In this document: one piece after another, positions 7,401-23,416 of the stretch
Layout of the letters: each line of letters starts with the position of its first letter
Numbering within the stretch: the stretch's first letter is position 1
From: a virus
Lineage: Duplodnaviria > Caudoviricetes
Direction: 5' to 3' (one strand)
IMG/VR virus record: IMGVR_UViG_3300016474_000947
Coordinates: 1 to 25,949 of that record
DNA length: 25,949 nt
Notes under the pieces: model-generated
The model's input: only the letters and a program-made list of their open reading frames with translations
The model's database searches: none
What the model was told of the DNA's origin: nothing
Made by a program: the position numbers and the translations under genes

Positions 7401-8385
7401 ATTTAAGAAAGTTTTTGAATCTACGTTTAAAAATGGTGAACACATTAACACGCAAGATTCAGATGTTTCAAGAAAAAAAATATTGTCAATAGGAATTCCA
7501 AAAGGTTTTTCTAGTAATCTAAAGTACAATATCAATTTCAATGGAAATTCAATTAAATATAAAACTAAAGATCTAAAACAAAATGACATAATAGAAATCA
7601 AGGTCTATAAAATAGATGTTCTAACACCTGAGATAATTTATAAACCTGTGTCTTTTCTGTTTGAATTGTCGAGATTTGTTGTGAAAGATGAATCTAAGTT
7701 TCCAACCGATTATAATGATTTTGCTACCATGATAGCAAAATTTCCAACAAGAAACTTTAACAATATCACAAAAAGTGAATTGGAAAAAATTTATTATCTT
7801 GCTGATTTTGATGCGTCATACTCGTTCCTTAAAGGTTCTCAATTGAAAGAATTGTATAAGAATCATGTTCTTAGTTACATGTATGAAATGTATATAAAAT
7901 TGTTGACTGGGGTGTCTCTAAGCGAAAAAGACTTCGCGATTTTTGATCCAATCAGGTACGTCTCTGTTGAAACGATCAATAAATTTTTCAATTCTTATAA
8001 AACCGTGGAGAATAAAACAGAGAATCTTGAAAATGTTGATGCAACGTTGGATGAGTGGTCAAGAAAATTGACTCCTTTGTCTAATGGTGTTGCTATGATG
8101 AAAAATATTTTTAATCCTAGAAAGTTTGAAAGAATATTCAATGTGTTGGTTGATCCATACTCATTTGAAATAGATTACAAAAAAACTACCTCTACCTCAC
8201 AAGGAACTGACGCTCTCAAATATCAACAATCAATTGGTGATATAATCACAAAATCTGTGTTGGCAGATGGTACAGACCCGGATAAAAAAGTGACGGTCTA
8301 TGTTCAAAGGCCTAGAAACAAAAATGAGGTTGTTATGGAACGATACTTTGTTCAAATTAACACGACAAACATTGAGGTATATTGA
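4483..8385 (+). CDS. Very large hypothetical (probably virion) protein, 1300 aa
   Basis: Long uninterrupted ORF, coupled to both neighbours (8-nt overlap upstream, TGATG downstream). No recognisable catalytic motif. Confidence 0.6.
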   Translation: MFNKLTGNNNSLIKTGGVELQPKKTNAPVKTTSTGATATVLENSKNKTIITTKSTAKSDQQSYLIKKIKTAQKVENKNSDDVGSIGIANDRPVIIMSTNFQSIFDQFSNYTNAGNYYSKQFGVRDLRQKLIEAVFDDVSNLGLDDYFEVLRSEFKKGFDRTNENVISLFEIIDKFISTKEILDIKNSIYDKAGDPIKFLEGRYSKNITEINNSFTSTKLWTMLFYEFKTIVEGMSFLKYEAGTLDDDPFSNNFSVDNNLKLEKKSSIEAIKINDSITTLVNNNTIEDTNAKFTEAFNSINEIIPNNSSLDERKVPIYVCFLRKHQKFVNAINNQSFIEFLSKNYDITINNSSNISNVFEKIVGNIPKDIFDKPKNSANSLISILNQGPDNAKILPFEVDYITAKDDVYTPGGVYYFDNILSSNTIDITNINSFAQNIKQVYVLLKRVIDEIRLITNNQDEDSAWSLYNLLINSFFTYTPGDTFLPLQDEYLNDPFMTLLESSREDMKAKAYLAQYVLYIMKNKQNMAKSTLDSMLTFMYQKFNSLISSNISSPEMDTKVEEIKFAQKIISFASNPAAAAGFNETSPLGKEFLIQIDDNGQVLISTFYQGGFEEFKLTDYIKFLQEYVNKLSKEIEEYSTKWWENNSNPEDSHYWLDGSYFYNAINELMSGESQNSPLGTKFIQVISDLMSQFTDNKFSGGISDSKVFAIIFDLVFDVITKSFVIVGQELYYENPFIKKYSVSEVDIKKDVLKFFDDVKIKVKFNDNFSKNLNHQFSTQIKIGTEENTRIEATKITLNVMQELNTRLMDIANYMNSNKVQQLISDLKFLNDISSDTGINKTATDAGSGKYMVVKSKNQAFSMGSSQTNIFNSPAAGTNFATNQLSQGLPVGAGTLQFGKSYEYNKNAVGASVDSMLVYENNLEKLNSIKEIFNKIQISNIASTFLDIKSVLDNNPNIKAGSEIEPLDDSSPRSKFKKVFESTFKNGEHINTQDSDVSRKKILSIGIPKGFSSNLKYNINFNGNSIKYKTKDLKQNDIIEIKVYKIDVLTPEIIYKPVSFLFELSRFVVKDESKFPTDYNDFATMIAKFPTRNFNNITKSELEKIYYLADFDASYSFLKGSQLKELYKNHVLSYMYEMYIKLLTGVSLSEKDFAIFDPIRYVSVETINKFFNSYKTVENKTENLENVDATLDEWSRKLTPLSNGVAMMKNIFNPRKFERIFNVLVDPYSFEIDYKKTTSTSQGTDALKYQQSIGDIITKSVLADGTDPDKKVTVYVQRPRNKNEVVMERYFVQINTTNIEVY

Positions 8386-10133
8386 TGTCAATTTCACTAA
8401 CTTCCAGAGAAACATACTTCATTGATGTGCCTGAGGTAGAAAATTTTAATGTAAAATTTAGGTATAATTTTTATGTTTCTAATGAACAAATAAGCGATGA
8501 GATAACAGTACCTGATTTCTTGGCAACAAAACAATCAAAGGGTTTCTTTGATCCAGAATACTTTAAACTTTTTAATTTTCATGTTCCCAGATACATGACT
8601 ATTACATGGAAATCACTAAAATTGGGTAACAACATTAGTGATGAAAAGGAAAGTAATAAGCTTGTGACTCCCGATCAAGCAGGCGTATCTAAAAATCTTA
8701 TATCAAAAAATATCGACAAAGTGTTGACAGAAGATGAATTTTCATCTGCAAATTTTTTTGGTATCACATTTCAAGACAGCCAACTCTTTAATAAATTGCA
8801 GAATATGCTCAAATATTCATCTGAAATTGTTTCTGACGTTCCAATGTCAGATAATGATTTTGAGACGATAGCAATGGATTCTTCAACGTTTGGAGCGACT
8901 TATTACAAGACTGGAAAGCAACCTATTACTGGTGTTACTAAAAAATTGTTGGAGTCCGTGAATATTAATACTCAAATTAATTCAAGACACTTGTATGAAA
9001 TTTGTCAAAAAATTTCTGAAGATCCACAATCGCCATATACTGATGATGTGAAACCTTTGATGGATGCAAGTAAAAAATATAAGGATACGCCTGATACTAA
9101 TTTTAATAATTCTGATTATGCACCGGCGATTGATTATATTAGCGTAAGTCCTGCATCATCAAATGGTCAATCTAGGGGAGTTCCACAAGTTGTAGGATAC
9201 ATTATTGACAAATACGAGATTGACGCAAAAAGAAATATCGTTCCTCTAGATCCAATCATAATAGAGAATTCAAGTGTTAATTTTTATGTTGACACAAGGA
9301 TCAAATATAATCACACCTACGTATATTCAATAAGAAGTGTATTGGCAATTAGCGTGCCTGCTATAAATTCAACGAACGGTAAAATGTCAACAATAACTTT
9401 TTTGGTTAGTTCAAAACCATCAGGTAAATTGTGGATATCTACTCTTGAAAATAAGGCACCTCCTCCCCCAGTTGATATAAATTTTGCATGGGATTATGGA
9501 AGACAAAAGTTGATTGTAAATTGGTGCTTTCCAGTAAATCCTCAATATGATATAAAAAGATTTCAAATCTTTAGAAGAAAAAAGATTGAACATCCCTTTC
9601 AACTGATCAAAGAATACAATTTTGATGATTCAGCAGTGAAAATGAATGTTGGTGAATTTCCTGATGAAAAATTGGTAGAACATCTTGAGAATCCTATAAC
9701 GTATTATATAGATGATGATTTTACAAAAGATTCAAAGTACATTTACACCGTTACTTCAATTGATGCGCATGGATTGACATCTAATTACGGAGCACAATTT
9801 GAAATATCATTTGATAGATTTAAGAACATATTGATAAAAAAATTGATTTCTCAAGCAGGCGCTCCCAAACCATATCCAAACATGTATTTGAAAGGAACCG
9901 GATTTGCAAATTTGATGAAAGTTAGTGGTGAATATTCAAAGAAGATGAAAATATATTGTGCGCCACATAACAAAAAATATCTTTATGTAAAGAATAACAA
10001 TAAAGAAGTTTCTCCAATATTTGAAACCGATGCATCTGGAGGTAATTATAAGATTCAAGTTTTGAATCTAGACAATCAAAAAGGAGAGACAATTACAATT
10101 AACATTAAGTCTTCTTCTAATCAAAAAATATTA
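8385..10133 (+). CDS. Fibronectin type III domain-containing virion protein (582 aa if TTA is stop; standard code extends to 10193)
   Basis: ATG in TGATG overlap with SD-like GAGGT at 8374. FN3 pattern APPPP..INFAWD...KRFQIFRR...YIDDD....YIYTVTSIDAHGLTS. First in-frame TTA is at 10131-10133. Confidence 0.7.
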
Positions 10134-10953: not shown

Positions 10954-12222
10954 ATGGCAATTTTTAAAGACATAGAAGATAATGACATTAAAACAGCAAG
11001 AAGTTTTCTCAATCAACTAATTGATGTTTTGCAGGAAGATATTAGTGGCTCTACATCACGTAGAAAATATCAGGTGTTCGTCACTGGTGGGGTTGGACCT
11101 GGCGTGACAAGCTCCTTGTATCAAACTGTGTACGATCAAGATTTTACCTTGCAAACAGCAAATCCAATTTTTGATATGACTGTTGGAATAAGTGAATATG
11201 GTTCTACTGCGGCTAGCGCGCTTGTTGGATTCGATTCAGTAGGAAAGGAAATATTCCCAAGTTCATCGCTAATGATGAGGGAGAAGTTGGACATATATCG
11301 ACAATTTGCGCAAGCGTTGTTGGGTGGTACGACTTCTGATCATCAATTTAAGGCACCATCATCATCCACTACGGTCTCAGACACGATAGACGTTGCGTTG
11401 TTCATTGCCTTCAAACGTCTTTTTGCACGTGATCAAATAAAGCGTGAAACTTTTGCAATGAAGTTTTATGAGACTGGTTCGGCTGTTAGATCCACAGGAA
11501 ATACTGACGGTCTATTGAGTGACCCACCTCGTGTTGGTCTTTCTGGAATAGATGTTATAGGAAGACCAAATCTATTTGTAACGTCTCTTACGGGATCTAA
11601 AATATACACCGACATTGGTGCAGCATCAGACAAATTGACAGCCATGGGTGGTCAATATGGACATATTGTTGATAGCTCAAACACCAATAGAACAGTGGGT
11701 CTCATGTATTATGATAGAGGTATAGCAGTTCTTGATTTGAAGAAGATCACAAGCGGTTCACAATTCATGTCAGGTGCAATTGATGCAATGCATCCTCTAG
11801 GCACAATTATGTTGGGCGGGACAGGAACTGAAACTGAGAAAAAATCAAAGTTTATCCCAGACTTTGTGGTATCTGCATCAATTGATAATATCGTTGATCA
11901 CATCGCATCATGTAGGTTTAGCTCTGGTTCGCTTTCAGCGATGACGTTCCAAAACGTAACAAACATAAATAGCACTCTCATATTCTGTAGGGCATCCGCA
12001 AACGAATTCAATTATTCATCTAATCCAACTTACACTGACACAGATAATAGGATAGTAGTAATCGATCCAGGACAGGAGGATACACAACAATCATTTACGT
12101 TTGTAACCTCAGTTGGATTGTATAATGCTAATGATGATTTGCTTGCAGTTGCGAAGCTATCGCGTCCTGTTGAGAAATCTTTTGAAAGAGATTTGACCTT
12201 CAGGGTTAGATTGGATTTCTGA
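10954..12222 (+). CDS. Putative baseplate/tail structural protein (tail-collar-like C-terminal motif)
   Basis: ATG 10954 chosen; the extension from 10915 contains in-frame TTA (10927). C-terminus FVTSVGLYNANDDLLAVAKLSRPVEK...FRVRLDF-TGA is shared with the 13338 gene. Confidence 0.65.
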   Translation: MAIFKDIEDNDIKTARSFLNQLIDVLQEDISGSTSRRKYQVFVTGGVGPGVTSSLYQTVYDQDFTLQTANPIFDMTVGISEYGSTAASALVGFDSVGKEIFPSSSLMMREKLDIYRQFAQALLGGTTSDHQFKAPSSSTTVSDTIDVALFIAFKRLFARDQIKRETFAMKFYETGSAVRSTGNTDGLLSDPPRVGLSGIDVIGRPNLFVTSLTGSKIYTDIGAASDKLTAMGGQYGHIVDSSNTNRTVGLMYYDRGIAVLDLKKITSGSQFMSGAIDAMHPLGTIMLGGTGTETEKKSKFIPDFVVSASIDNIVDHIASCRFSSGSLSAMTFQNVTNINSTLIFCRASANEFNYSSNPTYTDTDNRIVVIDPGQEDTQQSFTFVTSVGLYNANDDLLAVAKLSRPVEKSFERDLTFRVRLDF

Positions 12223-12295: not shown

Positions 12296-13291
12296 ATGAG
12301 AGCTAGAACTTATCAATTGCACGAGACAAGACTGAGACAAATAGTGAATGAAGAAATTCAGCGCAAGCAATTGCTAAGTGAAAATGTTATGGATTTGATA
12401 TCTAAACTTGTTGATCAAGTTCCTGCAATTGCTGATGCAATAAAAAATGTTGATTTGTCAAGCTTCACAATAGGCGATACAACATTTAAGATAGACACTC
12501 AGCTAATTACTGATTTCTATAATCTTGCGGAAAAACCTGTTAAAGGTATCGTAAAAGCAAAAAAGTCCACTGTGTTGAGTAGATTGTTTGATAATGCGTC
12601 AGCTCTTACATTTTGGACCATGATTCTTATGGCATGGTGGATGGGTACATCAATGCTGTTTTATACTTGCATGAAAATAAAAGAATTTTTGGTTGGTAAA
12701 GAAGGCGTTGAATCCGATAGAGAATTGGGTGGTTATAAACCAAAATGGCAACCAGGTATAATACAAAAACTTCTTGGTCCGTTGGTTAGTTTTGGGAAAA
12801 AAATTGATAAAAAATCAGCAGGAGATATTGCGAAAGCTGGCGCTAGAGGCTTTATGATTGGAGGAAAGTCAGGTGCAATTATAGGAATGGGTGAAAAAAT
12901 GATACAAAAATTTGCAGCTGACGGAGATCAAGTAATGCAATCAGAACCGGTTATAGAGCTAATGCAACTTCCTGAAGCCGCAGCAACCCTAAAGGCTGGA
13001 AAAAAACAATTTGATGCATTGCTTAATAAAGCCGAGGAAACAATGCTAGTAAATCAGCAACAATATTCTGGCAAGGGTTCTCCCACAGAAAAAGATCCAA
13101 GAACTCAAGTTCAACCTACCTATAAGGATACAGTTCGAGCTTCCCCCAAGTTTGATGCGGATCGTAGTTCACGAAGAACCAGGGACGGTTCTACAACTCA
13201 ACCAATGCAAACGTATAGACCAGGCGCAAGATCCAAAGAAGAAGAAGCTCCGGTACCAACTAGAAGATCTCGTAAACAAGGACAAGATTGA
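12296..13291 (+). CDS. Hypothetical protein with one hydrophobic/TM segment and Gly-rich helix; possible internal head/ejection protein
   Basis: ATG 12296 lies after the terminator. N-terminal LRQIVNEEI motif, hydrophobic ALTFWTMILMAWWMGTSMLFYTCM, AGARGFMIGGKSGAIIGMG, and a basic disordered tail. Confidence 0.55.
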   Translation: MRARTYQLHETRLRQIVNEEIQRKQLLSENVMDLISKLVDQVPAIADAIKNVDLSSFTIGDTTFKIDTQLITDFYNLAEKPVKGIVKAKKSTVLSRLFDNASALTFWTMILMAWWMGTSMLFYTCMKIKEFLVGKEGVESDRELGGYKPKWQPGIIQKLLGPLVSFGKKIDKKSAGDIAKAGARGFMIGGKSGAIIGMGEKMIQKFAADGDQVMQSEPVIELMQLPEAAATLKAGKKQFDALLNKAEETMLVNQQQYSGKGSPTEKDPRTQVQPTYKDTVRASPKFDADRSSRRTRDGSTTQPMQTYRPGARSKEEEAPVPTRRSRKQGQD

Positions 13292-13337: not shown

Positions 13338-15818
13338 ATGTCAATAATCAAGGTTGGACCTGATGATCAAGAGAATTTTACCATCACAATGAACCCGAAG
13401 AGGACCTATGTGTCAAGTTCTTCGGGTGTGACTGGTTCAGTGTATGTTTTTGCTCGACGAAGCAAGATTGAGAAAAACATGGCTCCGTCTTCTGCGTTCA
13501 TTGAAGCAACGCATGATGACGCCGATATTAATGCTGAACTGGCTAGCGTAAAAACCAAATTGTTGTCGAATGGTGGTGTTGGATCAATTGAAGGCGCACT
13601 TGAAAAATATCTAGAAAAAGTAAATCAACAAAATATCTCTGCTAGAAAACTCAAGACCCTGGAGATCATTAGATTTACGCCATCATACACTTTCACAACA
13701 AACACCATGAGAAAGTTGTATGTCAAAGATGTGCTGATGCGTCATTACAGGGTTTCATACCCCACGGCACATTGGGCATACACAAATTATAATAGCATAA
13801 ATTTTTTTACATCATCTACCGTGCCAACGGGTTCAGCACTACTATATCCTAACATTGAAGGTCCTGCTTCACAATTTCATGAAGGTTATGTTTCTGGCAC
13901 ATATTCTCTTAGCGGTGCGTTTTCATTCGATTTCTACATAAATCCCAGATATAAGCAAGATTCTTACGATAAAGAATTTAAAGCAGGAACAATATTTCAT
14001 CTATCATCCAGTTATGCGGTGTCCTTGATAAGCGGATCCGCTAAGGATGAAAATGGAAAAACTATCGGTTATAGATTGCAGTTGCAATTGAGTCATAGTG
14101 CGGGTATTTTGCCTTCTTTGGCAAAACCTGGAAGTTATCCAAATGACCTTGTGTTTCTGTCAAACGACAATTGTTTGACTGGAAATAATTGGCATCATGT
14201 TGTTATTAGGTGGGGAACTAATCTTATCAATGGTGGTACGGGCAGTTTTAACATAGACGGAGAGGATAAAGGTTATTTTGTTGTTCCTTCAGGGACTATA
14301 ACACCCCGTTTGTCAAACGAAGCAGCTCCCGACGTATTGTGTGTTGGCAATTTTTATACTGGTAGAAATACAGGTGTTAACGCACAAGCGTATTTCTTTG
14401 CTAGGGATCCTGCTAAAAGAGATGGTCTTGTTGAATTGATAGATGATGGTTCTACAACAAATGAACCTGCCAATTATTCATTTGATCATCCTTTGAATGC
14501 AGAATTGCACGATTTGGCAATTAAACGTTATTACATGTCAGATCAAGACATTGTGATTTCTTCTTCTACAGGTCCTGCAACGCTTGATGATAATATTGCA
14601 TTCTATTTGCCTCCATTTTTTACTCAAACGTCATCGCTAAGACAAGATGTAAATGGTTATGGAGGTGTTCTTCAAACCCCATTTATAGCCGCTGACGGTA
14701 CAACCACCACACCATACAATGTTTCTATGGCATTTGGTGTTGCTGGTCACTTCATAAACATTGAGAATTATCTAAAAGATTTTGCTTCAAATTCTCACCC
14801 TCGTCTTCATCTAATGACCGGATCGGTGCTTGACACTGGCACGACTCAAGCTTTGTCCGCAAACGAGCATATCTATAACAATCCTTTTAACATAAGGAGA
14901 AATTTGTTGATTATGCCTTGTGATGACGGGCAGTTTAAACCCAACTACTCTTTGCTTGAAGCAGAAGTCAACAGACAAAGCGCTACTGGCGATGATGGGG
15001 TTGAAGATTATTCATTTGTAAATCTTAATAACTTGTTGTCAACTGGATCGTTGTTGTTTGGCACCACTTTTACTGACGTAGAGGGAACTAGCGCCGCATC
15101 TGCTGATCAATTTGTAAAAGACACAATTGGATTTTCACCTGAAGATCCAAGCATTCCTGCTGGGGATGCATATAAAAAATTCATGAATAGCGTCAAGAGA
15201 CAAATAGCAGCAGGAAATTACGCACCTGGAATTTCAACCGATGCACCATTGACAATCTATCAAAGAACCCTTGACCCTTCTTCCGATCAGGTAACTTTCT
15301 TTGACATAAGCAATTTGTATTACGGGAAAAGAATATTGCCAGGTAGCCTAATCATGGTTGATTCTAACGTTAGTGGGTCTGGAGGTACAATGCGTTGGAC
15401 ATTGCGTGATAATGGTTATGGCAACATTTATCGTGCAGACAGTCTTACCAATCACGCAACTTGGAATAGTGTAGGCAATATTTTTTACGATGAAGGGATC
15501 ATCGTGATAAAAAATCCTCACCTATATTTCTTTGGTAAAAATCAATTTGAAATAAGTTTTCGTGGCGAACAAAACATTCATACCCTAAAAATGGAAGTGG
15601 TGGCACCACGAGGTCTAATAAACTCATCATCTAATTCAGGATTTAAGAAATTGCCAGCATCTGGACATATCACTGACACAGACCCCGATTACGTCAACAT
15701 ATCTGGCATCAATTTTCATGATAAAAATTTGAATGTTGTTGCTAAGACACAATTGGCACAACCTATCATGAAACGACATGGTGATAGGATTATGTTTAAG
15801 GTTACTTTGGATTTCTTA
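13338..15818 (+). CDS. Large baseplate/tail protein with LamG/ConA-like domain and tail-collar-like C-terminus (826 aa if TTA is stop; standard code extends to 15944)
   Basis: LamG-like pattern FSFDFYINP...NNWHHVVIRW...FNIDG...LCVGN...LHDLAI. C-terminus KVTLDF matches the paralog's RVRLDF-stop and is followed directly by TTA, whose A begins the next ATG. Confidence 0.7.
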
Positions 15819-16207
15819 TGCCCCGTCGCCGAAAAAAAAGAGGCCATTATCACAGGGGCACTTATGTGTCCCACATTGCGGGTGAGTGTAAGTATCGAAG
15901 TGGGTGGGAAGAAAAGTATATGCGTCACCTTGATTCGAACGTAGACGTGAAAATATGGTCATATGAGAATTTGGTCATACCATACGTCTCTAATGTAAGA
16001 ACCGGCAGGTTGAGGAAATATTATCCTGACTTTTACGTTGAAATGCAAGATGGTCAAAAAATTCTCATTGAGATAAAACCGAGTAAAAAACTAACACAGG
16101 CAATTATAAAAAAGAAAGTTGCCGCAGCACAACAATGGTGTAGTGAACACGGTGTGACTTATAAGATATTGACAGAAATTGAATTGAAAGTTATGGGGAT
16201 TATTTTA
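15818..16207 (+). CDS. Head completion nuclease (T4 gp4-like / TnsA N-terminal PD-(D/E)xK endonuclease)
   Basis: YRSGWE, YYPDF, IEIKP and K..AA..WC....YKILTE.EL motifs. First in-frame TTA at 16205-16207 (standard code ends at 16225). Confidence 0.85.
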
Positions 16208-16238: not shown

Positions 16239-16799
16239 ATGTCTAAGCTAATATTGGGTCTTGACGTTTCCACATCTTGTACTGGCGTTTGTGTGATTGA
16301 TTCGGAAATTCCACCTGATGATGCTGGAACGCATATCATAAAGCTAGACTACATAGATTTTAAAAAATGCGGCACATTCTTTGAAAAGGCAGATAGGGTG
16401 AAGAATGAGTTGATAAGACACTTTTCTACTATAGGTACCAAACCAATAATATTTGCGTTGGAAGAACCATTGCTTGGTTTTTCTAAGGGAATGTCATCAG
16501 CAGGAACTATCACAACTTTGATGCGTTTTAATGGAATAGTGTCATACATAGGCAGGGAAATATTTGGTATCGATCCAATCTATCAGTCTGCCGCTCACGC
16601 TCGTAAGTTGTGTGGTGTTAAATTGCAAAAAACTGCCATTGCTGGCATGAGTCACAAAGAACAAGTTTTCAAACACATGTCTGAAAACGATCTAAAACAC
16701 ATAACTTGGTCCACGAAGAAAAATGGTCAACCAATTGATGCTTCTCGTGATATGACTGATGCATACGTCATAGCTCGAGCGACATCTTTGAGTTATTTA
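16239..16799 (+). CDS. RuvC-like Holliday junction resolvase
   Basis: ILGLDVSTSCTG, central LEEP, and DMTDAYVIA acidic RNase H-fold motifs. First in-frame TTA at 16797-16799 (standard code ends at 16844). Confidence 0.85.
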
Positions 16800-16836
16800 T
16801 TGTACAAGTTAACTCAAGTATTTAATAATGTTAAAA

Positions 16837-17814
16837 GTGTATAGCCTTACCCAAAAGCTAAGGTTCATTGAATCGGTGTTTGGTAGTGGACGTCTGGCAA
16901 CAAACGGAAAGAATTTTGATGTTAGGTGCCCAATATGTGCACCATCTGATAACAGCAAAAGAAAATTGGCCATTCGTGTTACCGATGACGTGAATCATTG
17001 TTGGACATGCGGTTGGAAATCTCATACTCTTGCGCCTTTGATTAGAAGGTTTGGTACAACGTCGCAGCTCTCAAAATACAGAGAGGAGTTTATGCCTCAA
17101 GGAACAAGAGATGAAAATCTTGAATCTATTGAGGAAAAAAAGTCGCTACATCTACCACAAGATTTTTGCCTTCTCACAAATGCATCCCAATCAGATCCAG
17201 ATGCAAAGGCTGCATGGGCATATCTGAAATCAAGAGGAATAACTCGTAAAGATGCCTGGTATTATAAATTGGGTATATCTAATGAATATCGATGGCGTCG
17301 AAGAATCATTATTCCTTCGTTTGATAGTGAAGGTAATTTGAATTTCTTTGTGGCGAGAAATATTGATTCTGGAGACAAAAGAGCTCGTTATGATGGTCCT
17401 GATGAAGACAAACTACCAATCATTTTCAATGAAATAAACATTGATTGGAAAAGAAAATTGGTGATATGTGAAGGTGCATTTGACGTTATGAAATGTGGTG
17501 AAAATTCTGTACCTTTGTTGGGCTCAGATTTGAATGAACAGTCGAGACTTTTTAATCAGATTCTACTTCACAATACGTCAATTGCCCTTGCTCTTGATGG
17601 TGATATGTGGTATACCAAGACCCCAAGAATAGTAAAAAAAATGCAAGAATATGATGTGAATGTTTCAATTGTTGATGTAAGACAATGGGATGATCCTGGA
17701 AAAATGACAAAGCAACAATTTAAAATTGCGCTTGAAGATGCAATTACTCCTACTTGGGAAGACAATTTTTATAATAAGCTACAACGTGCTTCAGAACTAA
17801 AGATGAGAATGTAA
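16837..17814 (+). CDS. DNA primase (zinc-binding domain + TOPRIM)
   Basis: CPIC...HCWTC zinc finger; ICEGAFD, LDGD and DDPG TOPRIM motifs. Start placed at GTG 16837 because ATG 16828 is followed by TTA; the start is uncertain. Confidence 0.88.
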   Translation: MYSLTQKLRFIESVFGSGRLATNGKNFDVRCPICAPSDNSKRKLAIRVTDDVNHCWTCGWKSHTLAPLIRRFGTTSQLSKYREEFMPQGTRDENLESIEEKKSLHLPQDFCLLTNASQSDPDAKAAWAYLKSRGITRKDAWYYKLGISNEYRWRRRIIIPSFDSEGNLNFFVARNIDSGDKRARYDGPDEDKLPIIFNEINIDWKRKLVICEGAFDVMKCGENSVPLLGSDLNEQSRLFNQILLHNTSIALALDGDMWYTKTPRIVKKMQEYDVNVSIVDVRQWDDPGKMTKQQFKIALEDAITPTWEDNFYNKLQRASELKMRM

Positions 17815-17845: not shown

Positions 17846-18496
17846 ATGGTAAAAATTGCTCACATTGCTGATGTTCACTGGCGAGGTCTATCTCGCCATG
17901 ATGAATACAGACAAGTATTTGAATATTTTGTGAAAGATATTAAGAAAAATCAAATAGAACATATTTTCGTGGGTGGTGATATTTTTCACACAAAAACAAC
18001 CGGTCTAAGTCCCGAATACATACAACAACTAACTTGGTGGCTAACCTCAATGTCGGAGGTTGCTGAAGTTCATTTGACTCTCGGCAACCACGATGGTAAT
18101 TTGGTTAATGTGACTCGTCAGGATGCAGTCACACCTGTTGTCGAAGCGCTAGCCAATGATAGAATCCATCTTTATAAAAAGAGTGGAAACTATGAATTCA
18201 CCCCAGGGTATGTTTGGTGCGTTTTTAGTCTATTTGATACAGAAAATTGGGATAAGGTGAAACCCACACCAGGAAAAATTAATATTGCATGTTATCATGG
18301 TCCAGTATGGGGTGCTCGTACCGAAACTGATTGGGTAATTGAAGATGGGATAGGGATTGAATATTTCAATAATTTTGATTTTGCATTTTTGGGCGACATA
18401 CACAAACTTCAATACCTTGGTTATCGGGATGTTGAAATTCTTATTGACGAAGAAGAGTTGGGGAAATATCCTGGTGCTACGATTATTGAGGAGTTA
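17846..18496 (+). CDS. Mre11/SbcD-like metallophosphoesterase, N-terminal fragment (T4 gp47-like)
   Basis: HIADVH, GGDIFH, GNHD, CYHG and LGDIH motifs; lacks the final YPGS motif. In-frame TTA at 18494, TGA at 18503-18505. Confidence 0.85.
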
Positions 18497-18501
18497 CAAA
18501 G

Positions 18502-21078
18502 TTGAAAAAGATTAAAATTAAAACACAAATGCCTTGGATAGCATATCCTGGATCAACTGTTCAACAAAATTATGCAGAAGATCTAAAACATGGTTATCTT
18601 ACGTGGGAAATAAATAACCCTAATGACTTTAGGGTATCATTCAATAATTTGCCAAATCCAAAACCCTTTGTTACTCTAGCATGGGCTGGTGATATTAATG
18701 ACGCACTATCGTTTGCTTCTTCACAACCAACGGGTTCTAGATTTAGAATCAAAAGCAATATCCATATTGGACAACATGACATACATAAGTTGTCGTCTTC
18801 CATAAAAAAAATTGGAGCATCAGAGATAACTTTTAAAATTGATCATCAAATTGATAAAAGTATCGTTTCATCAGGTACCCAAAAAATAGAAAGAAATGAT
18901 CTACGAAATATTGATGTTTTGTTGGGTTTGATAAAGAGTTATCACACTAAATTTAATTTTTCTGATGTAGTGTGGCAAAATGTTACTTCACAGGTAAAAA
19001 ATTACCTGTCTAACGTTATAGGTTCTGAGGACATTATAAGAAACACAAAGTGGACTCTTCGAAGTTTGAATTTTGACAATGTGTTTGCATATGGTGAAGG
19101 TAACGTAATCAATTTTGATAATTTGAATGGTGTGGTTGGAATATTTGGTCCTAATCGAGCAGGAAAATCTTCAATAGTTGGTACCATCATGTACTCCTTG
19201 TTTAATTCATCAGACAGGGGTTCAGTAAAAAATTTGTATGTTTGCAATATTAGAAAGCCATATTGTTACGCAAAAGCAATCATTAATGTAAATGGCACTG
19301 ATTACGTACTAGAAAGACAAACAACTAAACACGAATCAAAGAAGGGCGCAATTAGCGCTCCCACTTCACTTAATGTTTTTAGAATAAATGAAAGTGGTGA
19401 AGCAATTGATCTTGCTGGCGAGCAAAGAAATGACACCGAAAAAGTAATTCGATCGTTGATAGGAAATTCTGATGATTTTTTGCTGACATCGCTTTCTGCA
19501 CAAGGAGAAATAAATCAATTTATTTCACATGGGTCAGCTAAACGTAAGCAAATTCTATCAAGATTTCTCGACCTTGATATTTTTGATAAAATGTATGAGT
19601 TGGCGAATAAAGATGTGAATGCCGTCAAGGCACAACTCAAATCATTTCCAGATAGGGACTGGGATGGTTTGAAACACGAACTAGAAGAAAAAGTTAAAAG
19701 ATTTGATGATGAAATCATTGAAATTAATTCCGCATCTTCAGAATTGGCATACAAACTTGAAGAAGCAAAAATTTCTTTGTCAAGACACACTAATACGTCT
19801 CCTGTGACTGAATCTAACGTCAAAGAACAGTACCAAAAGGTTTTGTTGCTAACAAAGCAACTTGATGAAATTCAAAAGAAAACAAGTTCTATTGTTGAAA
19901 ATATAGAAAAAAATGAATCGAAGATCAAGACGATTGAATCCTTGAAGACTGAAAACGATGTTTCAAACTTGAAAAAAAGATTGCAATCATTGACCGAACT
20001 AGAAAACAGTGTTACAACTTTCACTTACAAATATGAGAAAGAACTTTCAACTCTAAAACAACAGGAAAAATCACTAAAAATTCTAGATGATGTTCCTTGT
20101 GATGATAAATTTCCCAATTGCAAATTTATTAAGGATGCGCATCTAGTGAAAGATAAAATTGCATCACAAAGAACAACAGTAGATTCTATGTTGGAATCTC
20201 TCAATAAGATGTCAACATCTCTTGACACCTTGAAGAGTGAAGGTTTGCGTGATAAATTGGAAAAGATACAAAAATTGCAAGATATGCAAGTAAGGTTGAG
20301 CACTGAAGTTTCCAATGAAAAACTCGAATTGGTGAAACTTGAACATAATAAATCAAAATTGTCTACTGATCTTGATGGTGCAAAAAGTAGACTGAAGAAT
20401 CTTGAAGATGCAATAAAAAATAATGAAAATTCTGAAGTTGTTTCCCTAAGGGAAAAAATAGAAGAATATTCTGTGTCAATTAGAGAACACGATAATAAGA
20501 AAATGAAGGTGGCTAGTGAACGTGGGAAAGCAATGTCAGATGCACAAAAATTGATAGATGAGCAAGAGAAAAGAAATTCTCTTTTTTCTGGAGTTAAATC
20601 AATAGAGTTGATTGCAAATGCCTTTTCTAAAAAAGGAATACCTAATGACATCGTTTCTTCACAATTGCCTATTATCAATGCAGAAATAACAAAAATTCTT
20701 GCAGGCATTGTTGATTTTACAGTTGAACTAGAGGTAGATCAGGAGTCCGATTGGATGGACATTTATATAAATTATGGTGATTCAAAAAGAATTATTGAGC
20801 TAGCAAGTGGAATGGAAAAGATGATCAGCTCTATTGCAATTAGGGTTGCTTTGATCAATATTTCCACGTTGCCTAAAACTGATATGTTTATTATTGATGA
20901 AGGATTTGGTGCGCTGGATGATGCTGGTGTAGAGGCGTGCAATCGTCTATTGACATCTCTAAAGAGATATTTTAAAACAATCTTTGTAATTACACACGTT
21001 GATGGTATCAAAGATTCTGCGGATCACGTAATTGAAATTTCTAAGAATGAAAAAGACGCGAGGGTTTCATATGTTTGA
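18502..21078 (+). CDS. Rad50/SbcC-like ATPase (T4 gp46-like) fused to the C-terminal part of Mre11/SbcD
   Basis: SD GAGGAG at 18488-93 before TTG. N-terminal IAYPGS.VQQNYAE (Mre11 C-part), Walker A GPNRAGKS, coiled coil with two central Cys, signature ASGMEK, Walker B/D-loop FIIDEGFGALD, H-loop ITH. Confidence 0.92.
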   Translation: MKKIKIKTQMPWIAYPGSTVQQNYAEDLKHGYLTWEINNPNDFRVSFNNLPNPKPFVTLAWAGDINDALSFASSQPTGSRFRIKSNIHIGQHDIHKLSSSIKKIGASEITFKIDHQIDKSIVSSGTQKIERNDLRNIDVLLGLIKSYHTKFNFSDVVWQNVTSQVKNYLSNVIGSEDIIRNTKWTLRSLNFDNVFAYGEGNVINFDNLNGVVGIFGPNRAGKSSIVGTIMYSLFNSSDRGSVKNLYVCNIRKPYCYAKAIINVNGTDYVLERQTTKHESKKGAISAPTSLNVFRINESGEAIDLAGEQRNDTEKVIRSLIGNSDDFLLTSLSAQGEINQFISHGSAKRKQILSRFLDLDIFDKMYELANKDVNAVKAQLKSFPDRDWDGLKHELEEKVKRFDDEIIEINSASSELAYKLEEAKISLSRHTNTSPVTESNVKEQYQKVLLLTKQLDEIQKKTSSIVENIEKNESKIKTIESLKTENDVSNLKKRLQSLTELENSVTTFTYKYEKELSTLKQQEKSLKILDDVPCDDKFPNCKFIKDAHLVKDKIASQRTTVDSMLESLNKMSTSLDTLKSEGLRDKLEKIQKLQDMQVRLSTEVSNEKLELVKLEHNKSKLSTDLDGAKSRLKNLEDAIKNNENSEVVSLREKIEEYSVSIREHDNKKMKVASERGKAMSDAQKLIDEQEKRNSLFSGVKSIELIANAFSKKGIPNDIVSSQLPIINAEITKILAGIVDFTVELEVDQESDWMDIYINYGDSKRIIELASGMEKMISSIAIRVALINISTLPKTDMFIIDEGFGALDDAGVEACNRLLTSLKRYFKTIFVITHVDGIKDSADHVIEISKNEKDARVSYV

Positions 21079-21379
21079 AGAAAAATTTGAACCTTATTTT
21101 CGTGATAGAATGATTTGTAATAAGAATGGATATTGCGTAATCATTCCTAAGGATTCACCACAACCAATTCCAATCAATTGCCCCGTGTGTGATTTTTTGT
21201 TGAGATCTAAGGATGATGAAAATTCATGGTACAAATATAATTGTTGTGAAAGATGTTCAACGTATTGGGCAATACCTAGAAAATCGGAATGGGATACAGG
21301 ATGGAGACCTGGAATAGAAGATTTGCAAAAAGAGATAGCCAGACGCCCTCCAATTGCCGTAGATATTAAGATTGAATGA
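21071..21379 (+). CDS. Small zinc-finger protein
   Basis: ATG 21071 overlaps the end of sbcC, with SD-like GAGGG upstream. CPVC...CCERC motifs. Confidence 0.65.
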   Translation: MFEEKFEPYFRDRMICNKNGYCVIIPKDSPQPIPINCPVCDFLLRSKDDENSWYKYNCCERCSTYWAIPRKSEWDTGWRPGIEDLQKEIARRPPIAVDIKIE

Positions 21380-21389
21380 TTTTTTTGAC

Positions 21390-21397
21390 TATACTTA
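21390..21397 (+). promoter_or_regulatory. Putative late promoter TATACTTA
   Basis: Intergenic, upstream of an AGGAG SD and ATG 21414; heads the terminase unit. Confidence 0.6.
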
Positions 21398-21413
21398 GTC
21401 TAGGAGATTCGAT

Positions 21414-21797
21414 ATGGCTCAAGGTAAAATAGACTATAACGCTCTAGGACAAACTATTGATACAACATGGGGAAGGGCCTCAACACCAAAAACTGCTAGT
21501 TATTCTGTTAAATTTTCAATGCAAGGTGATAAATTGATCGCCTCATATGCAGCTATTGTTAATTTTGGTACCGAAAGAGAAATGATTATGATGAAAAGAT
21601 CATATGCCGAGGAATCGATCTCAATCATCTCTGAGGCAATTAAGGGAATTAAGGCAAATTACAAACAAATTTCTGGTGATAGTCTTTCTACAAAAGAAGT
21701 TGCCACGTCAGATTCTTTGGAAATAATTGGTTACGGAGTACACAATCCTAAAAGAACGGCGTATTATAGAAGAAAGACAGTTTTTGAGCTCAGCTTA
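21414..21797 (+). CDS. Hypothetical protein upstream of terminase (127 aa if TTA is stop; standard code extends to 21812)
   Basis: Strong SD AGGAG. Ends YYRRKTVFELS followed by TTA, whose A starts the terminase ATG (TTATG). Confidence 0.7.
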
Positions 21798-23416
21798 TGT
21801 CAGGACCTATAAATAGAGAAGATCAAGTTAAGGAAATATTGAATTGTGGTAAGGATGCTGTGTATTTCATGCGTAATTACGCAAAAATTCAGCATCCTAA
21901 GAGGGGTCTTATACCCTTTGAAACTTACAAATTTCAGGATGAGTGCGTAAGCGAATTTGAAAAAAATAGATTTAACATAGTTCTTAAATCTAGACAATTG
22001 GGTTTGAGCACAGTTACTGCCGCATATGCAGTTTGGTATGCAATCTTCAAGAAAGATAAAAACATCTTGATCATTGCAACTAAACTTCAAACGGCAATGA
22101 ATTTCATCAAGAAAGTAAAAACCATTCTAGATGGTTTGCCAAAATGGCTGCTACTCACAAAATTTGAACCAACAAAACAACAAGTTAGTTTTTCAAATGG
22201 TTCAACTATAACGGCAGTACCAACCAGTCCAGACGCAGGTAGATCAGAGGCATTGTCACTACTCATAGTTGATGAGGCAGCATTTATTCGTGATTTTGAA
22301 GAAATCTGGACTGGTCTCTACCCCACCATTTCAACAGGTGGCAGCGCGATCATCATTTCAACTCCAAATGGTGTTGGTGGAACTTACTATACACTTTGGA
22401 CTGATGCTGTTGCTCAAGTAAATGAATTCAATCCTATAAATCTTCCATGGCACGTTCACCCAGAACACAATCAAGAGTGGTTCAATAAAGAAACTAGGAA
22501 CCTTCCCAAGAGAAAAGTTGCTCAAGAATTTTTGTGCGATTTCATATCTTCTGGCGATACATTCCTTCAACCTTCAGAGATGGACTATTTGAGAGATATG
22601 ATTGATCAACCTATACGAAAAGAAGGACCAACTTCTGGCGTGTGGATATGGTCTGATCCTGAACCAAATAAGAAATATGTCATTTCGGCTGACGTTGCTC
22701 GCGGTGACGGTAATGATTATTCAACATTCCATGTTATAGACAATAATGATTGTGAAGTTGTGGCGGAGTATATGGGAAAGCTACCTCCCGACAAACTAGC
22801 TGATCTTCTTGCCGAATATGGAAAAATTTATAATAACGCCCTGATATGTCCGGAAAGAAACACATTTGGATATTTTACGTGTGTCAAATTGAGGGACATG
22901 GGATATAAACGTCTGTATTACAGAAATACATCAGGTGATTTGTTTGAGTACATATCAAACGATCCAGATGCGGTGCCTGGATTTGAAACACAAGGAAACA
23001 CAAGACCACAAATACTTGCAAAACTTGAAGAAGTAATTAGAAATAGAATTATAAAAATTTATTCTCAAAGGTTTTATGATCAAATGCAGGCCTTTATTTG
23101 GAATGGATCAAAGGCGCAAGCAACAAAAGATGCACACGATGATTTGATTCTAAGTTTGGCAATCGGTATTTGGTTGAATAACGGTGGTTCTTCAACGGGT
23201 GAACAAGGCAAAGAATTTGCCATGGCAATGTTGAAAGCAACTAAACTAGACAGAAGAGATTCAAATCAAATGCCAGGTGATATTGCTTCAGCACAACCTT
23301 TGGTCAATCCTAACATTAGAGGACACTCTTACAATCCACAAAATGTTCACAAACCTAGGGATCCATCACAAGTGAAACATGTAGATGTTTCAGACTTTAG
23401 TTGGCTTCTTCATTGA
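21797..23416 (+). CDS. terL: Terminase large subunit (T4 gp17-like)
   Basis: Walker A-like KSRQLGLST, Walker B LIVDEAAFI, STPNG coupling motif, nuclease motifs ADVARGDGNDYS and HDDL. Confidence 0.95.
   Translation: MSGPINREDQVKEILNCGKDAVYFMRNYAKIQHPKRGLIPFETYKFQDECVSEFEKNRFNIVLKSRQLGLSTVTAAYAVWYAIFKKDKNILIIATKLQTAMNFIKKVKTILDGLPKWLLLTKFEPTKQQVSFSNGSTITAVPTSPDAGRSEALSLLIVDEAAFIRDFEEIWTGLYPTISTGGSAIIISTPNGVGGTYYTLWTDAVAQVNEFNPINLPWHVHPEHNQEWFNKETRNLPKRKVAQEFLCDFISSGDTFLQPSEMDYLRDMIDQPIRKEGPTSGVWIWSDPEPNKKYVISADVARGDGNDYSTFHVIDNNDCEVVAEYMGKLPPDKLADLLAEYGKIYNNALICPERNTFGYFTCVKLRDMGYKRLYYRNTSGDLFEYISNDPDAVPGFETQGNTRPQILAKLEEVIRNRIIKIYSQRFYDQMQAFIWNGSKAQATKDAHDDLILSLAIGIWLNNGGSSTGEQGKEFAMAMLKATKLDRRDSNQMPGDIASAQPLVNPNIRGHSYNPQNVHKPRDPSQVKHVDVSDFSWLLH

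Follow-up and report, generated by a model that had tools for sequence, protein, structure and literature searches.

UUA is very likely a fourth stop codon in the phage analyzed here, because TTA is absent inside its genes and is placed where relatives have TGA, TAA or TAG. Our joint reading is that UUA serves as this fourth stop, probably because the bacterial host has a class-1 release factor with altered codon recognition. The DNA stretch (the window; 25,949 nt, 35% GC, genes all on one strand) encodes PhoH, a gp4-like nuclease, RuvC, a primase, SbcD/C, a terminase and a portal, and its source is an uncultured aquatic T4-like giant (jumbo) phage. The T4-like tailed-phage assignment is based on the portal (PF07230), the terminase (PF03237), the head-closure protein (phrog_218) and the primase (phrog_47), and is supported by the gp23 capsid and gp19 tube proteins present in the relative G002. 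A similarity search against cultured phages gave no close relative, with the terminase at most 43% identical and the gene under study, g13338, without a match. Translation of the window with NCBI table 23 resulted in a clean set of 19 plus-strand genes.

The gene g13338 (13338..15818, plus strand) ends in ...FKVTLDF-TTA (15816-15818), and g10954 (10954..12222, plus strand) ends in ...FRVRLDF-TGA (12220-12222), just as the initial annotation had described for this putative paralog pair. The A at 15818 is indeed also the first base of the ATG of a gp4-like head-closure/TnsA-type nuclease gene (15818..16207, plus strand; 129 aa, ending at TTA 16205-16207; phrog_218 and PF08722), and the TTA thus forms the first half of a TTATG stop/start overlap. 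The TGATG overlap named as its counterpart is present at 8383..8387 (plus strand), and the orthologous junction in G002 is itself TTATG. A second TTATG overlap in the window lies at 21795, where g21414 (21414..21797, plus strand; 127 aa, ending at TTA 21795-21797) runs into the ATG of the T4-like large terminase gene (21797..23416, plus strand; PF03237, phrog_2). With table 11, the g13338 open reading frame continues to TAG at 15942-15944, giving 868 aa, a tail of 42 aa counting the TTA (15819..15944, plus strand) and an overlap of 127 nt with the nuclease gene, as had been calculated. This tail, which is unconserved and altered by strain variants, is very likely untranslated. Since UUA is very likely a stop, the g13338 product is likely a protein of 826 aa ending in VTLDF.

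Alignment of homolog C-termini, the check proposed at the outset, supported TTA as the stop of g13338. Of 114 loci searched, 58 matched and 44 distinct ends passed the filter; all 44 ended exactly at the TTA column, as did 114 of 120 database homologs. The other six had tails of 1 to 361 aa, which all start with Leu but are unrelated to each other and to the LCPVAEK extension of the window gene, an extension absent from all six. Similar results were obtained for g21414, where 62 of 66 homologs ended at the column, 3 ended no more than three codons from it and 1 had TTA there; of its 120 database homologs, 5 had no motif match and were left unscored, and all 6 long ones carried Leu at the stop column. 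Such false tails or fusions arise when recoded phages are annotated with table 11, as in 6 of the 120 database homologs of g13338 and 6 of the 120 of g21414. The nuclease ended at the column in 34 of 41 homologs, within three codons in 6 and further away in 1. The fit was looser for the RuvC-like resolvase (16239..16799, plus strand; TTA 16797-16799; phrog_159), with 28 of 44 ends within three codons and 16 further away. For the SbcD-like N-terminal part (17846..18496, plus strand; TTA 18494-18496; phrog_100), 18 of 48 homologs ended within three codons and 30 ran on, being fused or cut at a contig end. Homolog ends of g8385 (8385..10133, plus strand; 582 aa, TTA 10131-10133) were variable and uninformative (1 of 21 at the column, 6 within three codons and 14 further away), and this site is not diagnostic. 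The SbcD- and SbcC-like parts (17846-21078) are two genes in the window and one open reading frame in many relatives (30 of the 48 ends), and the split point in the window is the TTA stop.

The comparison of g13338 with g10954 had been ranked as the strongest single piece of evidence, a rank it loses because it rests on one shared domain. The similarity of the two proteins is confined to the C-terminal domain, where it was weak pairwise (12/47 identities, E 2e-4) and clear by profile-profile comparison (97.5%, E 8e-12, 124 columns, last residues aligned). Stronger evidence comes from where the orthologues end, from the lack of internal TTA codons, from the swaps among TTA, TGA and TAA between phages, and from the tmRNA tag. 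While g10954 has TGA in the window, its orthologues in the phages G003 and G013 end at TTA. Even in near-identical strains the g10954 orthologues differ, with ...RLDF followed by a 10-aa tail and TAA in G002 (L086) and ...RLDY-TTA in G003 (L083); the 10-aa tail also occurs in several standard-code relatives. The gene g10180, considered as a third paralog, was not detectably related to g13338 or g10954 in the profile comparison. The structure model of the 826-aa g13338 protein had a mean pLDDT of 85, and its last predicted strand (residues 818-825) ends at ...LDF. Fold matches of the model were LamG/pentraxin and phage ConA-like proteins, and a LamG-like jelly roll is therefore predicted. The protein had no named match in Pfam and PHROGs and matched only unnamed viral clusters in the ESM Atlas; it is likely a virion protein. 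Between g10954 and g13338 lies a gene of 331 aa (12296-13291) that matches nothing in Pfam or PHROGs and lacks an orthologue in the genomes compared, and its start, MRARTYQLHETRLRQIVNEEI, is similar to the short N-termini of several small G002 genes.

The codon usage of the whole window showed the same pattern. With TTA as a stop, the 19 genes contain no TTA among 8,428 sense codons, 620 of them for Leu, whereas the two remaining frames of these genes hold 423 TTA triplets; the chance of finding zero TTA if it made up even 5% of the Leu codons is P about 1e-14. A-ending codons dominate the other codon boxes tested (58-87%), and base composition therefore predicts that TTA would be common. UUG and UCA are still sense codons, as TTG is used 273-282 times as the main Leu codon and TCA 270 times as a common Ser codon. 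The 19 genes end with TGA in 10 cases, TTA in 6, TAA in 3 and TAG in none. When table 11 was used instead, the 19 open reading frames contained only 10 in-frame TTA codons; 3 of these were among the first five codons of genes whose start had been called too far upstream, the other 7 lay no more than 43 codons from the gene end, and no TTA lay inside any domain of the window genes. The primase (16837..17814, plus strand; phrog_47) has a GTG start with TTA as a stop, and the ATG called with table 11 at 16828 is directly followed by TTA. TGA is also the dominant stop in standard-code relatives, and in the window TAG is unused despite the low GC content, hinting at a high-GC host.

These counts bear on the standard code, under which TTA would be Leu, the stops would have been lost by point mutation and the tails would be tolerated read-through. 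In its favor, one substitution turns TAA or TGA into TTA, and the tails vary in some homolog families (g8385 and g16239). The standard code is nevertheless extremely improbable, as it requires that 6 of 19 genes lost their stop to a TTA and yet that no silent change of TTG or CTA to TTA took place at 620 Leu sites. It further requires fused open reading frames in G002, a tmRNA tag whose ALAA end is buried and frameshifting indels in tails.

Strain variation was consistent with termination at TTA. Contigs from three other studies span 15816-15818, with no change at the TTA among the variants listed; the three variants listed behind 15818 are all silent in the nuclease frame, and two of them alter the read-through tail. 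Three other studies had contigs with a 1-nt insertion behind 16800, just past the RuvC TTA, and two other studies had contigs in which 1 nt was deleted at 16833, which would break the table-11 primase start (for each indel one contig of depth <5 per run). Both indels fall after the RuvC TTA and before the primase GTG, in a stretch that is non-coding only if TTA stops and is a two-gene overlap under table 11. The strain comparison of 18350-21950 showed no indels and no change at TTA stops among the variants listed. An assembly error was rejected, given the TTA pattern at six sites of the window and in four other phages and the contigs of three other studies that span the site with no change among the variants listed. 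None of the sequencing runs listed for the phage was of RNA.

The four relatives with the same TTA pattern are G002/G003 (near-identical), G004/L263, G005 and G013, and they support TTA as a stop together with the homolog ends and the window-wide codon pattern. In G002 (104 kb), 31 of the 83 genes called with TTA as a stop end in TTA, including those for PhoH, ClpP, dUTPase, the sheath protein and the capsid protein, and the internal-looking TTAs that were read out proved to be gene boundaries. All 20 TTA-ended G002 genes with an orthologue aligned near the end in the standard-code relative G001 finish within 5 aa of it. Stop codons swap in both directions between G002 and the window. The capsid gene, compared over 80 loci, has TGA, TAA or TAG at the column in 68 and TTA in G002, the remaining 11 being short or cut. 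A host with the standard code would read through about a third of the genes, so the code would act as a host-range barrier.

The tmRNA tag also ends at TTA. The tag of G004 is ANDNGVAPFALAA-TTA (...ALAA-TTA), as opposed to ANDNGVAPLALAA-TGA (...ALAA-TGA) in G001, and read-through at the TTA would add 21 residues behind ...ALAA. The C-terminal Ala-Ala of a tmRNA tag is what proteases recognize. The ANDN...ALAA tag may resemble myxobacterial tags. A tmRNA tag and a capsid gene that both end at TTA argue for true termination over stalling. They therefore weigh on the possibility that UUA is an unassigned (hungry) codon, at which ribosomes would stall and then be rescued (by ArfB, ArfA/RF2 or drop-off) or slip by +1 into an overlapping stop. 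In that case the frame of the tag, itself ending in TTA, would stall the rescue system, and the capsid gene and TTATG-coupled genes would end in a stall as well. The base after TTA was T in 19, C in 11, A in 9 and G in 7 cases (n=46), a +1 stop was present in only 16 of 46, and the +1 frame at 15816 reads TAT, which is no stop. Slippage by +1 into a stop was rejected for most sites, as A or G follows TTA in 16 of 46. Some points favor a hungry codon, namely that tRNA-Leu(UAA) is missing among the tRNAs of G001 and that the accessible text of PMC10732093 considers stalling at UUA, bypassing and a push of 1 nt into a stop in Streptomyces; on balance, we consider it clearly unlikely.

In most relatives TTA is an ordinary Leu codon. 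The nearest relative by terminase, G001 (309 kb, 91% complete, 56% GC), uses TTA for 10 of its 4,265 core Leu codons, all of them internal and read as Leu, for example in the 5'-3' exonuclease (DNIPGVKG[L]GFKT). G001 may represent a TTA-poor state before the recoding, or a reversion from it. A conditional code, in which the phase or host state would decide whether UUA is a stop or Leu, with regulated read-through or fusions as the outcome, would accommodate this Leu reading of rare TTA and the in-frame fusions through TTA that exist on paper (P0001; G002). Such a code is very unlikely, since the tails are unconserved between phages and carry indels among close strains, and no domain contains a TTA. 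In a tree of four proteins with 29 chosen rows, six of them recoded, the distribution of the recoding needs 3 changes, which could be one gain and two losses; a single recoded clade was compatible with the AU test (p 0.073). No further large recoded genome turned up in scans with the capsid protein and P0027. In two other loci (L311 and L312), residues 161-538 of the terminase are matched over 2,331 nt, a length that suggests an intein or intron.

Phages with TAG recoded to Gln are known. Stop-to-sense recoding of UGA to Trp or Gly is also described in the accessible text of PMC8629427. The present phage resembles stop-to-sense recoded phages and bacteria in having a code other than table 11 that is not uniform among close relatives, but the direction is opposite, as a stop is gained here and no suppressor tRNA is needed. 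The accessible part of PMC8629427 makes no mention of UUA, and a code screen that infers amino acids, as described there, would at best leave UUA uninferred. A term search of the accessible body of PMC12421855 found no phage content. Streptomyces has bldA-dependent UUA, and the terminase of its phage Hau3 shows bypassing (accessible text of PMC10732093). The likeness is that UUA is singled out among the Leu codons and tied to translation control in a phage; there, however, ribosomes meet UUA within genes and either read it or hop over it, whereas here TTA is never internal and sits at homologous stop columns.

UUA is a stop in the mitochondria of Labyrinthulea/Thraustochytrium (NCBI table 23), where Ser204 to Ala, Gly or Cys in mtRF2a is the proposed cause, and TTA sits at gene ends in the organelle UUA-stop codes (accessible text of PMC12574857). 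The phage shows the sequence features of table 23, a likeness drawn from its DNA: only TTA is changed, TTG stays Leu, TCA stays Ser, and TTA sits at gene ends. The two differ in that table 23 is an organelle code and the system here is a tailed phage with a T4-like portal and terminase. The same source reports UUA and UCA as stops in peDinoflagellate plastids and UUA and UUG as stops in the mitochondria of Marsupiomonadales and Pseudoscourfieldia (PMC12574857), with the plastid case called by its authors the first sense-to-stop change outside mitochondria. These codes share with the phage the UUA sense-to-stop change and the false gene fusions under the standard code, but neither two-codon pattern fits, as UCA and UUG are not restricted to gene ends in the phage. 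In the literature covered, mostly freely readable main texts, we found no report of UUA as a stop in bacteria or phages, and the sense-to-stop changes found in print are only those of mitochondria and plastids. If true, the code described here would have no sense-to-stop precedent other than in organelles. With four stops in use by phages, and likely by the bacteria they infect, it would demonstrate that a stop can be gained by a bacterial translation system. It would also offer a natural test of codon capture, as TTA is rare yet Leu in G001 and relatives end genes with it. The code points to a release factor of new specificity, which would be useful for termination studies and genetic firewalls.

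The window and the four recoded fragments searched contained no release factor. No tRNA, including tRNA-Leu(UAA), was found in the window, G002 and G003, all of them fragments. The absence of these genes, the 3 changes on the tree and the absence of the RF2 Cys/Gly motif (at the SPF serine) from viral contigs favor the host as the source, and UUA is probably read by the release factor of the host. Because the recoded records are 2-29% complete, a phage-borne factor keeps some probability. On the model of the organelle codes, UUA would have become rare in a high-GC host, the host tRNA-Leu(UAA) would have been lost, and an RF2-type factor would have widened its second-position reading to accept UUA, with UUG (Leu) and UCA (Ser) staying sense. 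The phage would then use UUA like any stop, including in TTATG coupling. A free-living bacterial lineage and its jumbo phages would thus have turned a sense codon into a stop read by a release factor, and the phage family would gain and lose the code between hosts, with G001 as a TTA-poor intermediate; this course of events is the probable one in our judgment.

Alternatively, the phage itself could impose the UUA stop by encoding a UUA-reading release factor, or modifying that of the host, and removing the host tRNA-Leu(UAA), which would truncate host proteins and spare its own TTA-free genes. The family does carry translation genes, as G001 has a short release factor, suppressor tRNAs and 50 ARAGORN calls (tRNAs and a tmRNA, without tRNA-Leu(UAA)). 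Imposition by the phage also accords with the fragmentary state of the recoded records and the single origin allowed by the tree, but G001, where the release factor was seen, reads TTA as Leu. Of 80 viral loci with a release factor of the G001 type, 19 are TTA-poor, and no TTA-ended gene was recognized in the 9 of these that were read or in G001, with L194, L201 and L260 being ambiguous. The short phage release factor was rejected as the cause, since it was found only in the standard-code G001 and in loci without recognizable TTA stops. Furthermore, early TTA-ended genes would need the factor before its synthesis, and no viral contig matched the RF2 Cys/Gly motif. Imposition by the phage is thus fairly unlikely. 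The suppressor-like tRNAs of G001, two with a CUA anticodon and one with UUA (amber/ochre suppressor-like), lie at 228801-228949 and 288775-288850, and G001 still ends genes with TAG and TAA.

For the favored host release factor, species genomes were scanned for Ala or Gly at the SPF serine of RF2, which gave 12 matches, 9 of them in real RF2 genes; the 12 included no recoded bacterium and no myxobacterium. In five Gly-bearing genomes, with about 100,000 codons sampled, TTA was Leu where judgeable (G008, G010 and G012), the data for G009 and G011 being thin. Examples are S13 (HRRG[L]PVRGQ) and SecA in G010, and SecY in G012. In the genomes sampled, bacteria with Ser-to-Gly at the RF2 site therefore differ from table 23, and this replacement alone is insufficient to recode bacteria. 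IGPF replaces the SPF motif in RF2 of L346, L350, L352 and L354 (Armatimonadia) and of L344 (Acidimicrobiales), with TTA read as Leu where judgeable. Near codon 36, a prfB-like CTT-stop site for +1 frameshifting splits the short phage release factor, which has a PPT motif (L115:1453-2200 in G001; L183-L262). This site was present in 39 of 48 loci checked (CTT-TGA in 31, CTT-TAG in 7 and CTT-TAA in 1), often behind a GGAGG-like stretch, and looks like autoregulation in which the sensed stop differs between phages.
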